In this document: piece by piece, positions 19,741-53,180 of the stretch
How positions within the stretch are numbered: the stretch's first letter is position 1
Layout of the letters: every line of letters begins with the position of its first letter
DNA from: an uncultured delta proteobacterium
GTDB taxonomy: Bacteria > Myxococcota_A > Polyangia > Polyangiales > Houyiibacteriaceae
DNA: 64,000 nucleotides
Reading direction: 5' to 3'
Assembly: GCA_963817725.1 (NCBI GenBank)
Contig: CAWFPD010000004.1
Location: 330,425 to 394,424 of the forward strand
The notes under the pieces: generated by a model
Seen by the model: only the letters and a program-made list of their open reading frames with translations
What the model was told of the DNA's origin: nothing
Database searches by the model: none
Made by a program: the position numbers and the translations under genes

Positions 19741-20643
19741 TTAAAACGCAGCGCCGCCGCCGATTCGCAGACCCCAAACCTGTCGTTTGTCGAACGAAAA
19801 GCCGTTCGGGTTGTCGATGTTGATGTTCAACCGAATCGCGCCAAACGCATTGTCGTTGCCGAATCGCATGAAGGGCTCGACCGCAAGCTGGGTCTTCTCC
19901 TCATTGAACTTGGGGATCAAGACCAAGCTGAACCTGGACCCGACCCGCAGCCAATCGGTTGCCTGGTAACCCATCATGGCGGCCATCTGCATGATGAAGT
20001 CCACCTTCGACGTTCGGGCGTTCTTGTCGTTGATCTTGATCAAGGCGCCGGTGTCGAGATAGGCGCCCCACAAGAAGCCGCTCGGTTTGGTCCGCTCGAG
20101 CGCCACCGGAACGATGACGCTCACCGTGTGGGGGTCCCAAAGCCAATACATGTTGTTTCCGCGTATCGCGGCCGCCAACTGATAGGCCTGTGCCGCGGTC
20201 ACCTGATCCTGATCGGGGATGTCGCCAGGAAGGGTAGCTACCGGAATGGTCGCGCCTAACCCGACCCGATAGGAGAACTGATTCTTTTTTCCCTGGTAGT
20301 GAAAGACGATGTAGGGATTTCCAAAGCGGAACGCGTTGCGCTTGTCGGCATTTTCGAAATCTACGTTGGCATACGCCATGCCCCAGACGACCTGCATGAG
20401 AACGCTGTAGGCGAGTTGCAGACGCATCTCGATGAGCGGGCTGACTAGCACCGAGCGTTGGTCTCCCTCGAGCTTGCCGGCGAATAGACCTATCTCGCCC
20501 AGAACGTGAAACCGCTGGGTATGGGCCTTCGCTCCGTCATCGAGGCTGTACGGCTCGTCCGGAAAAGCGCGCGCCTTTCCTGGCGCCAGCCACACTGCCG
20601 CAAAGAACAGACCAAGGACTCCCCACCGTCGAAGAACAGACAT
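19741..20643 (-). CDS. Predicted outer-membrane beta-barrel protein
   Basis: Has a signal peptide (LAPGKARAF) and alternating amphipathic strands. It ends in GGGAAF, with a terminal Phe. Confidence 0.55.
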   Translation of the reverse strand: MSVLRRWGVLGLFFAAVWLAPGKARAFPDEPYSLDDGAKAHTQRFHVLGEIGLFAGKLEGDQRSVLVSPLIEMRLQLAYSVLMQVVWGMAYANVDFENADKRNAFRFGNPYIVFHYQGKKNQFSYRVGLGATIPVATLPGDIPDQDQVTAAQAYQLAAAIRGNNMYWLWDPHTVSVIVPVALERTKPSGFLWGAYLDTGALIKINDKNARTSKVDFIMQMAAMMGYQATDWLRVGSRFSLVLIPKFNEEKTQLAVEPFMRFGNDNAFGAIRLNINIDNPNGFSFDKRQVWGLRIGGGAAF

Positions 20644-20719
20644 CGATCAACCCCCAAGTGAAAAGAGACCCCCTCTTTTCCTGCTCTTCAATATAGACAG
20701 CTGGGCCGAACATGGCCCA

Positions 20720-20811: not shown

Positions 20812-21747
20812 TCATGCCAAGCGCTGGGTCGACTCCAAAGGACGCCTGGTGAGAGCGGCGTCCAGCTCTTCGTAGTGGTGCATCATGCGGGCAGGAAGCC
20901 GCTGGGTCGATAGAACATGCCCTTCAGGAAGGCCCAGCCAGACTTCGTGGTCTTCGGCCAGGCGTTCGATACCCGCGCCCAAGGCCTCGCGTTCGCCCGG
21001 TTCGCAATCCCGCGCGATGCTCAATATGATGAGCTCGGCGCCGCTCTGGTCAGCCGCTTCGGCGATGTCGTCAAATGGCATGTGCGTGCCCAGATAGATG
21101 GGTTCGAAGCCCCGACTCGCGGCCATGAATGCACCGATGATCGCACCGAACTCGTGCAAGTGATTCGGAGGAGTCGCCACGATCACCCGAGGCGCGCCCG
21201 ACACCGGATCGGTATGTCGCATCAGCGCGCCCAGCAAGCTTCGCAGTTGGCCCGAGATGATGTGCTCATGAGAGATCCGAAACTGGTCTGAGCTCCACGC
21301 ATCCCCGACACGGCGCATGAGTGGCACGATCACCTCGAGTGTGAGCGTCATGGCCGGCAAAATGGCTGCCGTCCGGGTCAATATCGACTCTGCGCGCTGC
21401 ACGTCGTACTCGAAAACGGCCTCTAGGTAGTCCTCCACGACGGCTGCATACAGCGAAACCTTGCTTCCGATGTCCGATCCAGTCTCTCCGATCAGCCGCC
21501 GGAGCTCATCATCGCGCAGCCGTGCGACCTGACCGATCGAATGCCCAAGCTCGGTGGCACGCCGCAAGAGGACCAATCGTTTCACCTGAGCGCCGGAGTA
21601 TCTCCGCTTGTTGCCTTCGGTTCGATCTGGCTCGACCGCGGCATATCGACGCTCCCAAACACGGATCGTATCCGCGGTCAGACCTGTGAGACGCGCCACG
21701 ACGCGCATTGGATAGAGTCCGCTCATTTCTTTGACGTTGTTGCTCAT
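20812..21747 (-). CDS. carH: MerR-family, cobalamin-binding light-sensor-type regulator (CarH/LitR-like)
   Basis: N-terminal MerR HTH (YPMRVVARLTGLTADTIRVWERRY...RRYSGAQV). Has the Wx9EH motif (W-SSDQFRISH-EH). The B12-binding domain reads VIVATPPNHLHEFGAIIG...AELIILSI. Confidence 0.75.
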   Translation of the reverse strand: MSNNVKEMSGLYPMRVVARLTGLTADTIRVWERRYAAVEPDRTEGNKRRYSGAQVKRLVLLRRATELGHSIGQVARLRDDELRRLIGETGSDIGSKVSLYAAVVEDYLEAVFEYDVQRAESILTRTAAILPAMTLTLEVIVPLMRRVGDAWSSDQFRISHEHIISGQLRSLLGALMRHTDPVSGAPRVIVATPPNHLHEFGAIIGAFMAASRGFEPIYLGTHMPFDDIAEAADQSGAELIILSIARDCEPGEREALGAGIERLAEDHEVWLGLPEGHVLSTQRLPARMMHHYEELDAALTRRPLESTQRLA

Positions 21748-21833
21748 GATTGGCCGTTGATTAGAGGTACGGAAGCGGGTACCCGTTACGCGGGATCACT
21801 CGATTCGCCTGAAGATGAATGGGGTGGTGGTGC

Positions 21834-23285
21834 TTACATCCATCTTTCGTGTTCCTGTGTTGGGTACCCGCCTCGTACCGGAAGGGTTAGGGTTCCGGCG
21901 AAGCTCGTGTCTGCGCTGCGAGACAGATGCTTGGCGAAGCGACTCATCAACCAACGGTGAAAAATCGCCTGCGAAAAAATGTAGACGAGCCAAGGCAAAC
22001 GAGGCTCGTAGTCGTGCACGACGGTCAGTAACGTCCGGCCGCCCAACACCTGACGAAGCTCGAACCGAGGCCTGCCATTGCGGCGCGAGAGAAGACCACC
22101 GGTCACGTAAAAAAGCTGTCGATCGGGGCTGCTGCGGCCCGGCGCTCGCGTCAGCTCGAGAAGAGGCGACCGGAGCGGTGTCAAAACGAAGCGGAAACGA
22201 TCGGCCGACTGGATGTCTACGCGCAACAACGACCGCAAGAAGCGCGGCAGCCACTGAAGATATTCGGACGCAGCCCGCTGGGCGGTCCAGCCTGCGGGCA
22301 ACTGCATGCGCTGCACGGACCGAACCAAGCGTTGCCTCGAGCTCGTGCCTCGGAACGCATGAGGGGCCGATCCATCGGTCTGCGCTACGGCCCGGCGGAT
22401 CGCCTCGCGAATCGGGGTGCGTTCGACGCCCAGCCGCTCCGCAAGACCATCGTCCCGAATGACCATTTCGTGCCGGAGGCTCTGAACGAGCGGCCCCACC
22501 AGCGCCCTTGGCGCGCCCGTGATCAGTGTGATCCACAGACGGGACAACCCAGGCGACATGATTCGGGAAGGAATGAACAGACGACGCTTGCCAAGTGACG
22601 AAGCCGTCATGGCCATCATCTGCTTGTAGGTCACGATATCGGGAGCTCCGATGTCGTAGACCCGATCATAGTGCTCTTCGCTGCCGATCACTCCGCCGAT
22701 CATCCGTACGACATCCTCGAGCGCGACGGGTTGCGTTCGGATGTTCGTCCAGCGCGGGCACACCATGATGGGCAGGCGCTCGACCAATCGCGCCATGATT
22801 TGGAACGAGGAGCCGCGACCGCCCAAGATGAGACCCGCCCGCAACGTGGTCACAGGCACCACGTGGCCCGCAAGCACCTTTTCCACCTCGCTGCGGCTCT
22901 GGAGGTGCTTCGATAGCTCTGCTCCCTCGGGAATCAGCCCGCCAAGAAAAATGATCTGCTTCACACCCGCAGCGGCCGCCGCTCTTGCAAAGTTGTCAGC
23001 GCACACCACGTCGAGGTCCGCGAAGTCACCCTGCGTGAACCGCGTCGAGGGCATCATGTTGTGCACGAGGTACACCGCGTACTCCGCCCCTTGCAGCGCC
23101 TGCTCGGCCTCCTTCAACGAAAACAAATCGCAGGAGCGGTACTCGTCGAAGCCGCCGCCAGGCGTCCGAACCGATCGGGACAAGCCGATCACGTGGAAGG
23201 ACTCGGCGAGCACCGGCGCAAGCGCTTGCCCCACGAACCCTGAGGCTCCAGCGATCACCACCTTGGGCCGACGCGGCTCTTTCAT
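21834..23285 (-). CDS. NAD(P)-binding SDR-like protein with a C-terminal DUF2867-like domain
   Basis: N-terminus PKVVIAGASGFVGQALAPVL. Length is about 480 aa. It is the first gene of the operon that ends with the CarH-like gene. Confidence 0.65.
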   Translation of the reverse strand: MKEPRRPKVVIAGASGFVGQALAPVLAESFHVIGLSRSVRTPGGGFDEYRSCDLFSLKEAEQALQGAEYAVYLVHNMMPSTRFTQGDFADLDVVCADNFARAAAAAGVKQIIFLGGLIPEGAELSKHLQSRSEVEKVLAGHVVPVTTLRAGLILGGRGSSFQIMARLVERLPIMVCPRWTNIRTQPVALEDVVRMIGGVIGSEEHYDRVYDIGAPDIVTYKQMMAMTASSLGKRRLFIPSRIMSPGLSRLWITLITGAPRALVGPLVQSLRHEMVIRDDGLAERLGVERTPIREAIRRAVAQTDGSAPHAFRGTSSRQRLVRSVQRMQLPAGWTAQRAASEYLQWLPRFLRSLLRVDIQSADRFRFVLTPLRSPLLELTRAPGRSSPDRQLFYVTGGLLSRRNGRPRFELRQVLGGRTLLTVVHDYEPRLPWLVYIFSQAIFHRWLMSRFAKHLSRSADTSFAGTLTLPVRGGYPTQEHERWM

Positions 23286-23287
23286 GT

Positions 23288-23320
23288 CTGTCTATATACT
23301 GTCTATATTTTTATGGTCAA
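23288..23320 (-). promoter_or_regulatory. Putative sigma-70-type promoter with two tandem 11-bp CarH-operator-like direct repeats; possibly a leaderless transcript
   Basis: The bottom strand reads TTGACC-16nt-TATATA-7nt-ATG, with the ATG at 23285. The tandem repeats AATATAGACAG and TATATAGACAG (23309-23288) both fit nAnnTnnACAn. They cover the spacer and the -10 hexamer. Confidence 0.45.
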
Positions 23321-23359
23321 TACATGGACATCTTTTCTTGTTTGCCAGAGCCCCAGAAT

Positions 23360-23389
23360 TGAAACATGTTCTAGTGAAACATGTTCTAG
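23360..23389 (+). repeat. Perfect 15-bp tandem direct repeat (TGAAACATGTTCTAG x2) upstream of the Rieske oxygenase operon
   Basis: Read directly: unit 1 at 23360-23374, unit 2 at 23375-23389. Each unit contains the palindrome AACATGTT. The repeat lies 49-78 nt upstream of the ATG at 23438. Confidence 0.85.
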
Positions 23390-23437
23390 TTTGGCGGTCC
23401 GTACTCGAATGGCCGCCCGACCAGAAGGAGCTCCCTC

Positions 23438-52073: not shown

Positions 52074-53180
52074 TTATAACAGAAAGACGTCCTCCAAGTC
52101 GTCGAAGGCGGTGGCGCGCCACCGGGCGAGCGGGCTCTGCCCTTCGAGAAGGTCTTTGGTGGCAGCTAGCACGGCGGGGAGATCCACGAGGTAGCAATAC
52201 GGATCGGCCGAGGCGCGCACGCCCACACCGGGTGGAAGATCCATCGGTGGAAGCCAGGACACCATTTTTCGGTGCTCGCCGTCGATGACGGCTCGTACTG
52301 CGACGTTGCCCAAGCGGCTGCCGAGCAGACGATCGAATGCGCTCGGTCGACCGCCGCGCACGACATGCCCGAGGACCGTTACCCGGGTTTCGACGTCTTC
52401 CTGATCCTCCCCCGTCGCTTCGCGAAGCTGGGAATCGACCAGTGACTTCAAACGATCGGTAGACGTCGGAACGCCCTCGGCCTTGATCGCCACCACTTTT
52501 TGGTTTTCTTGGTGCCGCTCGCGCACGGTGAGAATCGTATTGACGACGGATCGGACCAACTCTTCTTCGGTGCGCACGGCCTCGGGGAACAGAACCATGT
52601 TGGCGCCGGAGGCAATGGCAGATGTCATGGCGAGGTAGCCGCAATCGCGCCCCATGACCTCGATGATGAACGTTCGACCGTGTGCGGTGGCGGTGTCCGC
52701 AATGCGGTCGCAGGCTTCGACGATGGTATTCATGGCCGTGTCGACACCGATGGCGAGCCCCGTCAGGGCGACGTCGTTGTCGATCGAAGCCGGTATGCCG
52801 ATGCACCGCACGGGCCAGTCCTTGGCTTCGTGCGGATCGCTCAGGAGGGTAAGCCCGGTGAGCGAACCGTTTCCCCCGATCACGATCAGGCCGTCGACCC
52901 CCTGCTCCGTCAAGAATTCACGCGCCTGTTGGCGCGCAGCCGTCTCGTAAAACCTCTTGCAACGGGCGGAATGCAAGATGGTGCCGCCCTCTCGAAGGAT
53001 GTCGTGCACGTCATTCGCGGTGATCGGACGGACATTCCCATCCATGAGGCCTCGGTAGCCGTATCGCACACCTAGGACCCGGTGCCCCTTGGCCAGGGCG
53101 ACCATCGTCACGGCCCGAATCGCGGCGTTCATTCCGGGGGAGTCGCCGCCGCTGGTGAGAATCGCGATCGTCTTCGACAC
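52074..53180 (-). CDS. pfkA: 6-phosphofructokinase
   Basis: AGGAGG lies 4 nt before the GTG at 53180. Motifs TIAILTSGGDSPGMNAAIRAV, VIGGNGSLTG, IGIPASIDND and MGRDCGYLA. Confidence 0.85.
   Translation of the reverse strand: MSKTIAILTSGGDSPGMNAAIRAVTMVALAKGHRVLGVRYGYRGLMDGNVRPITANDVHDILREGGTILHSARCKRFYETAARQQAREFLTEQGVDGLIVIGGNGSLTGLTLLSDPHEAKDWPVRCIGIPASIDNDVALTGLAIGVDTAMNTIVEACDRIADTATAHGRTFIIEVMGRDCGYLAMTSAIASGANMVLFPEAVRTEEELVRSVVNTILTVRERHQENQKVVAIKAEGVPTSTDRLKSLVDSQLREATGEDQEDVETRVTVLGHVVRGGRPSAFDRLLGSRLGNVAVRAVIDGEHRKMVSWLPPMDLPPGVGVRASADPYCYLVDLPAVLAATKDLLEGQSPLARWRATAFDDLEDVFLL

Follow-up and report, generated by a model that had tools for sequence, protein, structure and literature searches.

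A CarH-family regulator with a conventional candidate operator and a structured RNA leader in an uncultured Polyangiales bacterium

We analysed a stretch of 64,000 nucleotides (nt), referred to below as the window, from an uncultured Polyangiales bacterium (GenBank assembly GCA_963817725.1, contig CAWFPD010000004.1, positions 330,425 to 394,424 of the forward strand). The window contains a carH-like gene, which lies behind a gene for a short-chain dehydrogenase/reductase (SDR)-like protein and next to a divergent oxygenase operon. The source genome has 4.75 Mb in 15 contigs and is 100% complete. The nearest named relatives of the CarH-like protein are proteins from metagenome-assembled genomes of Polyangiales, including "Myxococcales bacterium SG8_38" (87% identity). 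The carH-like gene and its motifs are as follows (aa, amino acids).

20812..21747, minus strand: carH-like gene from the list of open reading frames (311 aa, ATG start), encoding a MerR-type DNA-binding domain, a four-helix bundle and a Rossmann-like B12-binding domain
21511..21714, minus strand: MerR winged-helix DNA-binding domain, residues 12-79 (Pfam MerR_1, E 1.4e-14)
Within the MerR domain, minus strand: recognition-helix motif RVWERRY, residues 29-35 (RxWERRY form), invariant in 118 of 118 aligned homologues
21262..21297, minus strand: Wx9EH motif W151-SSDQFRISH-E161-H162, residues 151-162, aligned to W131/E141/H142 of Thermus thermophilus CarH (TtCarH)
21145..21162, minus strand: lower-axial-ligand motif H196-L-H198-E-F-G201, a variant of D/ExHxxG, from the alignment to TtCarH

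Domains, fold and signature motifs of the CarH-like protein

The best matches of the CarH-like protein among all Protein Data Bank (PDB) chains are Thermus thermophilus CarH/LitR (5c8d and 3whp, E 4e-26, phmmer), and residues 8-251 align to TtCarH at 29% identity. Besides MerR_1, Pfam identifies a B12-binding_2 domain at residues 104-175 (E 5e-9). The AlphaFold2 model (42 homologues) has a mean predicted local distance difference test score (pLDDT) of 84.9 and consists of a winged helix, a helical bundle (residues 95-179, pLDDT near 90) and a five-stranded alpha/beta domain (residues 187-301). When the model was compared with the PDB using Foldseek, the top 50 matches were all TtCarH/LitR structures, and its cobalamin-binding domain was superimposed on that of TtCarH with a template modelling (TM) score of 0.82 and a root-mean-square deviation of 2.9-3.0 Å. 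The protein has the three-part architecture seen in TtCarH (PDB 5C8D/5C8E/5C8F), namely a MerR winged helix-turn-helix, a four-helix bundle with Wx9EH and a predicted Rossmann-like domain with a His aligned to the axial ligand. A first-pass annotation, made from the sequence alone, had described the product as a CarH-type photoreceptor-like regulator dependent on adenosylcobalamin (AdoCbl or AdoB12), with a MerR helix-turn-helix and a Rossmann-like B12-binding domain. Similarity to TtCarH in full-length sequence and in fold, with homologous Wx9EH and axial His, agrees with that description. The MerR_1 match confirms the former domain and the fold prediction supports the latter, though the Pfam profile for B12 binding stays below its cut-off.

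The recognition helix carries RxWERRY, the DNA-recognition motif of CarH and CarA (PMC9304148). In the phmmer alignment to 5c8d, W-SSDQFRISH-EH matches TtCarH WHRGEIGVAEEH column for column, and VGDAWSSDQFRISHEH is placed on TtCarH VGEAWHRGEIGVAEEH, which pairs W151, E161 and H162 with W131, E141 and H142. The Wx9EH motif of TtCarH forms a cap over the adenosyl group. Further along, TPPNHLHEFGA is placed on TtCarH TPPGERHEIGA, with H198 on the axial H177 and His196 in place of Glu175. The Wx9EH and axial His positions are therefore homologous and not accidental matches, and HLHEFG is the counterpart of (D/E)xHxxG, as the first-pass annotation had proposed for both motifs. The classic B12 motif reads D/ExHxxG-x41-SxT/V-x22-27-GG, with the His as lower axial ligand (PMC9304148); of this, the protein retains its His and Gly, keeps x41 before the Ser and has 26 residues up to the next Gly.

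Conservation was assessed at two depths. Among 120 close homologues (at least 54% identity), W151, E161, H162, H196, H198, E199, F200, G201, S243, G272, P274 and the RVWERRY helix are invariant, and the motif variant fixed in this clade is H-L-H-E-F-G ... S-I/V-A ... G-[ILV]-P. Searching 1.8 billion cluster representatives exhaustively with HMMER gave 11,977 relatives at E<=1e-3, and residues were counted in the best 150 of these 11,977 (33-48% identity). The residue two positions before the axial His is E in 57 of the 150, H in 46, Q in 39 and D in 3, and G-x-P stands in place of GG in 58. The W, E and H of Wx9EH are kept in 143, 149 and 145, respectively, and the axial His in 146. HxHxxG as a clade-specific oddity is ruled out by its frequency across the family; judged by these alignments, it is a widespread subfamily trait rather than a sign of decay.

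The SDR-carH operon, its promoter and its neighbours

The features upstream and downstream of carH are as follows (bp, base pairs).

21834..23285, minus strand: SDR-like NAD(P)-binding protein gene (483 aa), first in the operon, matching Pfam Epimerase/NAD_binding_10 at residues 9-117 only
23288..23309, minus strand: tandem 11-bp direct repeats aATATAGACAG tATATAGACAG of the CarH type nnnnTnnACAn, over the spacer and -10, from the sequence and genome-wide scans
23310..23331, plus strand: adjacent inverted repeat pair TTTATGGTCAA TACATGGACAT, one degenerate and one full, covering the -35 hexamer, from a position weight matrix scan
23293..23320, minus strand: promoter-like TTGACC-N16-TATATA (then gacagac-ATG), 7 nt before the SDR ATG, read from the sequence
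20690..20700, plus strand: solitary copy identical to repeat 1 (AATATAGACAG), in the gap that separates the carH stop codon from a downstream gene for a 300-aa secreted protein

The SDR-like gene precedes carH on the same strand at a distance of 86 bp, a geometry of co-transcription. The C-terminal ~180 aa of the SDR-like protein match no known family. Its label as a DUF2867 protein in the first-pass annotation has to be dropped, as Pfam gives no DUF2867 match even at E<=10 and only Epimerase/NAD_binding_10 on the N-terminal third. The placement of carH as the distal gene of the operon is supported by the 86-bp gap, the common strand and a repeat-bearing promoter that is kept where the SDR gene has been lost. 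The SDR gene precedes carH in ~17 of 30 related loci.

Tandem 11-bp repeats of the form 5'-nnnnTnnACAn-3' over -35/-10 are experimentally established as CarH sites in Thermus, Bacillus and several myxobacteria (PMC9304148). Together, the tandem and inverted pairs form a 44-bp two-plus-two site (23288-23331), and the same back-to-back layout of 22+22 bp recurs at C7:579033-579076 (C numbers denote contigs of the genome). As in TtCarH, the operator consists of 11-bp TnnACA repeats over promoter elements, and autoregulation is predicted here; the TtCarH operator differs in having three tandem repeats. Operators with one or two full repeats and additional degenerate ones work in myxobacteria, and in Labilithrix luteola two tandem repeats and one degenerate repeat lie upstream of carH (PMC9304148).

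The promoter layout is the same in the related loci L005 (SG8_38), L006 and L008. The tandem repeats are kept in L005, L006, L007, L008 and further relatives, down to 64% protein identity, and the full repeat of the inverted pair is kept in L005 and L006. The distance from promoter to ATG implies, and its conservation suggests, that the SDR-carH mRNA is leaderless. In L006 (70% CarH identity), the SDR gene is cut to a 27-codon remnant (L006:5800-6000). The remnant still has its start of the leaderless type, together with the repeats and the RNA leader described below, and the promoter/repeat block is 188 bp before carH; in L043-L045 the block is at -230. The natural deletion in L006 sets the unit of promoter, leader and carH apart from the SDR gene. 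In relatives that do not have the SDR gene, the leader comes right after the repeat-bearing promoter, which is 188-230 bp from carH on its upstream side. The retention of the block before carH in the relatives is good comparative evidence for transcription of carH from the repeat-bearing promoter.

The 11-mer AATATAGACAG occurs only twice in the 4.75-Mb genome, once in the operator and once as the lone copy downstream of carH. The gene beyond the lone copy (19741-20643, minus strand) encodes 300 aa with a signal peptide and has no Pfam or NCBIfam match. One or two such family-less genes are found at the same place in the relatives L004-L008.

On the other side, the operon faces the following features.

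23438 onward, plus strand: operon of Rieske (KshA_C-type)/BphC-HsaC-like dioxygenase/Rieske/hemerythrin genes, divergent from SDR-carH (Pfam, NCBIfam)
23361-23390, minus strand: tandem identical 15-bp boxes ACTAGAACATGTTTC x2, each fitting TnnAACnnGTTnnA, 48-77 bp before the oxygenase-operon start codon

The boxes begin 30 bp beyond the CarH repeats, and two are kept in L005 and one in L006. They probably form a TetR/KstR-type operator, with TnnAACnnGTTnnA being what we take to be the KstR-type pattern of mycobacteria.

A structured RNA leader upstream of carH

When the 150 nt upstream of carH were aligned for ~30 relatives, a block was found to be conserved whether or not the SDR gene is present.

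21748..21890, minus strand: structured RNA leader (~140 nt) spanning the last SDR codons and the SDR-carH gap, defined by alignment, folding and a covariance model

The leader folds into a ~19-bp outer helix P1, whose 5' strand lies within the last SDR codons, and an inner hairpin AUGGAUG/CAUUCAU with loop CACCACCACCCC; it also contains the conserved stretch GUCAGGCGA. Single-sequence folds have energies of -40 to -65 kcal/mol, and the consensus was obtained with RNAalifold. In the alignment, 84% of cells are paired, compared with 33-46% when the partners are slid, and 14 of the 36 pairs show changes on both sides. The covariation score was reached by none of 500 shuffles, and from its G-U pairs the structure lies on the sense strand of carH. 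Searches of Rfam 15 gave no relevant match, either for the whole window at gathering thresholds or for the leader and four second-copy loci at E<=10. In neither search was a cobalamin riboswitch matched.

In the genome, the covariance model recovers the leader (112.9 bits) and one more copy at C11:48780-48915 (minus strand), with a clean intrinsic terminator after it. Of 36 genomes of the genus, 34 contain the motif, generally as two copies; a search of 24 other genera of the order found it in none. Genomes that have no carH orthologue retain the second copy. This copy lies ~105 bp from a divergent AraC-family gene in 22 of 22 loci, and directly upstream of a DEAD/DEAH-DUF3516 helicase gene in at least 6. 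The leader itself was rejected as an intrinsic terminator: a U-run follows P1 in several relatives and does not do so in the window. The leader may act as a translational or termination gate on carH. We regard it as possible, at somewhat less than even odds, that it represents an undescribed class of cis-regulatory RNA that gates a B12 photoreceptor post-transcriptionally through a factor or ligand, as a second layer on the light switch.

Candidate regulon, proposed mechanism and alternative explanations

Besides the promoter of the SDR-carH operon, about six more promoter regions carry CarH-type repeats. Pairs of the core T[ATG]GACA at 11/22-bp spacing number 13 in the genome, against 1.1 expected from the core density. 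A strict scan for two adjacent full repeats missed the operator of the carotenoid (crt) genes, which a relaxed scan allowing 11- or 22-bp spacing found. The candidate regulon sites and their genes are as follows (CFA, cyclopropane fatty acid).

C7:1004345-1010977: carotenoid cluster with lycopene cyclase, polyprenyl synthase (crtE), CrtI-like and crtB genes and a divergent second desaturase-like gene
C7:1009258-1009300, divergent intergenic region: crt operator with four tandem 11-bp repeats, including TTGACA
Between carH2 (the CarH paralogue on C5) and a divergent DUF4397 lipoprotein gene: three tandem repeats and two more
Amine-oxidase/DUF1365/CMAS operon of the CFA/furan-fatty-acid type: repeat site
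Divergent SDR-Coq4-like pair facing genes for a small membrane protein, a protein with no Pfam match and a DUF427 protein: repeat site
C8:52858-52879 (minus strand) and 52912-52933 (plus strand): two repeat pairs upstream of a sigma-70-family gene (278 aa)

Two further hits, a palindrome beside a TetR gene (C10:78696) and C10:6275, were set aside as probable chance occurrences or sites of other regulators. The four-repeat crt site resembles Pcrt of Myxococcus xanthus in having TTGACA inside a repeat, and carH is unlinked from crt genes in S. amylolyticus, L. luteola and N. exedens, as here (PMC9304148). In the relative L007, carH itself adjoins a CMAS/amine-oxidase/DUF1365 cluster. The class II LitR proteins PplR and PmlR of Pseudomonas, which are autoregulating MerR-type repressors of the LitR/CarH family, as is predicted for the protein here, mediate light control of SDR, FAD-oxidoreductase and furan-fatty-acid synthase (CMAS-like) genes (PMC9758184). 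Because repeats lie at the crt cluster and at genes typical of known LitR/CarH light regulons, the candidate regulon looks like a conventional photo-oxidative-stress regulon, carotenogenesis included. The repeats at the sigma-70-family gene suggest a light-induced sigma-factor cascade. The first-pass annotation had noted oxygenase genes rather than carotenoid genes beside carH and had proposed a non-canonical light regulon. The former is correct for the immediate neighbourhood, which is conserved in synteny, and the genome has a crt cluster with a CarH-type operator elsewhere. The latter is at best partly supported, in view of the separate KstR-like boxes at the oxygenase operon and of the repeats at the canonical crt cluster, the CFA/furan-fatty-acid cluster and SDR genes.

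The genome encodes a PduO-type ATP:cob(I)alamin adenosyltransferase, four methylmalonyl-CoA-mutase-family genes and MetH. Because the adenosyltransferase and the mutase-family genes are present, AdoCbl is presumably made and used in the host. A CobA-type adenosyltransferase (PF02572) and a photolyase (PF00875) were not found in this 100%-complete genome. The second CarH paralogue (295 aa, C5:207168-208055, minus strand) is 37% identical to the protein here, and the two are equally similar to TtCarH. Its motifs are fully canonical: Wx9EH (WENGTLRIAHEH), EDHELG, SVT and GG. It is divergent from the DUF4397 lipoprotein gene, and the repeats between them are at C5:208101-208122 (minus strand) and 208200-208232 (plus strand). 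Genomes of the same genus have 1-4 CarH-like matches each, usually 2 or 3.

Taken at the level of sequence, the gene is a genuine, ordinary member of the CarH family with a conventional putative operator and a largely conventional candidate regulon. The best explanation, to which we give a probability of about 0.8, is that it encodes a class I LitR/CarH repressor with an AdoCbl chromophore, which would repress at TnnACA repeats in the dark and release its genes in the light. Class II LitR identity is ruled out by the five-stranded alpha/beta domain: the class II proteins are four-helix bundle proteins that have no Rossmann B12 domain and need a LOV partner (PMC9758184), whereas the protein here keeps the domain at residues 187-301. 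In the proposed mechanism, an AdoCbl-bound oligomer (a tetramer or a pair of dimers) would sit in the dark on the TnnACA repeats over -35/-10 of the SDR-carH promoter. It would also occupy the repeats at the approximately six other promoters (carotenoid, CFA/furan-fatty-acid, SDR/Coq4-like/DUF427, sigma-70-family and second CarH genes), blocking RNA polymerase. In the light, cleavage of the Co-C bond would lead to disassembly of the oligomer and derepression. On this evidence, the protein very probably keeps its own operon, the genes for carotenoids and a few genes of photo-protection switched off in the dark. Transcripts running into carH would pass the conserved structured leader, which probably adds post-transcriptional control.

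Several observations weigh against this assignment or modify it. The Pfam B12-binding profile PF02310 scores 21.2 bits at residues 187-244, with a cut-off of 32.1. The NCBIfam CarH equivalog NF052513 (TransRegCarH) scores 130.9 bits and does not reach its cut-off of 400, although the alignment runs end to end (protein residues 8-297 on model positions 3-272 of 274). NF052513 is a narrow model, and the shortfall lowers the equivalog status of the protein, not its membership of the CarH family; the protein is a family member and not an equivalog of the proteins modelled there. The Rossmann half departs from the classic motif, with HxHxxG for D/ExHxxG, SIA for SxT/V and G-L-P for GG; relative to TtCarH, Glu175 is His, SxV is SxA and GG is GLP. 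Distant family members often show these same replacements. The dimer salt bridge R176-D201 of TtCarH is replaced by L197-H222 in the alignment, the oligomer-interface glycine G160 by D180 and H132, which supplies the upper ligand in the bis-His adduct of the light state, by S152. The interface glycine G192 is kept as G213, and the clade has various residues where S152 stands (H 28, N 25, I 16, R 12, S 11). Because R176-D201, G160 and H132 are not conserved, the protein may differ from TtCarH in its oligomeric state and in what happens to the cofactor after photolysis. Both tetramers and dimers are known among myxobacterial CarH proteins, the Cystobacter proteins forming dimers (PMC9304148). 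The TTGACC-N16-TATATA promoter was not called by a scanner for the sigma-70 consensus, because its -10 ends in A. At some of the repeat sites, or at all of them, the principal light switch could be the C5 paralogue.

These points raise the alternative that the protein binds DNA as CarH does and is no photoreceptor, being either B12-independent like M. xanthus CarA, which acts with an antirepressor, or a sensor of B12 availability, with the C5 paralogue as the light sensor. The non-classic B12 motif (HxHxxG, SxA, GxP), the Pfam B12-binding score below cut-off and the canonical EDHELG, SVT and GG of the C5 paralogue in the same genome would fit this, and the Myxococcus CarH/CarA pair shares one operator (PMC9304148). 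CarA is a CarH paralogue that has the DNA-binding domain and operator type in common with the protein here, but it is B12-independent and has lost the Wx9EH Trp; in the clade of the protein here, all of W, E and H are invariant. CarA identity is ruled out by the Trp and the full Wx9EH spacing, and this genome, with two or three CarH-like paralogues and an intact Wx9EH in both the protein here and the C5 paralogue, differs from the myxobacterial CarH/CarA arrangement. The axial His and the EFG after it are also invariant and the Rossmann fold is well predicted, and the frequency of H or Q at -2 beside an intact Wx9EH across the family argues that these residues are compatible with function. We therefore consider a non-photoreceptor very unlikely. 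A main local role beyond autoregulation, namely light control of the divergent Rieske/extradiol-dioxygenase (steroid-ring-opening-like) operon, is suggested by synteny between carH and the Rieske operon in L004/L005, L008 and even L006, where the SDR gene is lost. The inverted pair at 23310-23331 faces the Rieske operon, and Sorangium provides a case in which divergent promoters can share one CarH site (PMC9304148). But the Rieske operon has its own tandem 15-bp boxes, the CarH repeats lie 30 bp further upstream, no oxygenase-operon promoter could be placed under the repeats, and in L007 carH adjoins the CMAS/DUF1365 cluster instead, which makes this role unlikely. A secondary light input into the oxygenase operon is conceivable in view of the synteny and the Sorangium case, but no observation calls for one. 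A further alternative is that the conserved block before carH is a short upstream open reading frame or a conserved SDR C-terminus and no RNA element: a frame of 15-31 codons starts at an ATG (ATGGATG) that has AGGAG in front of it in several relatives, and in many loci this frame ends overlapping the carH ATG (ATGA). The frame over the conserved CCACCACC core, however, varies by locus (HHH, TTT or PPP), and the peptide-coding reading was rejected on this ground; because the frame differs between loci, the leader appears to be conserved at the RNA level. The element is also present at loci without the SDR gene, sense-strand helices are backed by G-U pairs and compensatory changes, and the second copy is non-coding and followed by a terminator, so that a coding origin is quite improbable.

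The CarH proteins of Sorangium cellulosum, Haliangium ochraceum and Labilithrix luteola (PMC9304148) come from the same phylum as the gene analysed here, which differs from the CarH systems of Sorangiineae and Nannocystineae in being preceded by an SDR-like gene and a structured RNA leader, and in a candidate regulon that adds fatty-acid-modifying genes and a sigma-factor gene. These results would extend B12-based light sensing to an uncultured, marine, sediment-dwelling Polyangiales lineage, and they supply a concrete candidate regulon of carotenoid, fatty-acid-modification, SDR/Coq4-like/DUF427 and sigma-factor genes and two CarH paralogues. The wide spread of HxHxxG and QxHxxG forms beside an intact Wx9EH matters for CarH annotation and for the engineering of CarH-based optogenetic tools. 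The RNA leader common to carH and the helicase gene is the only element at the locus that could be new biology.

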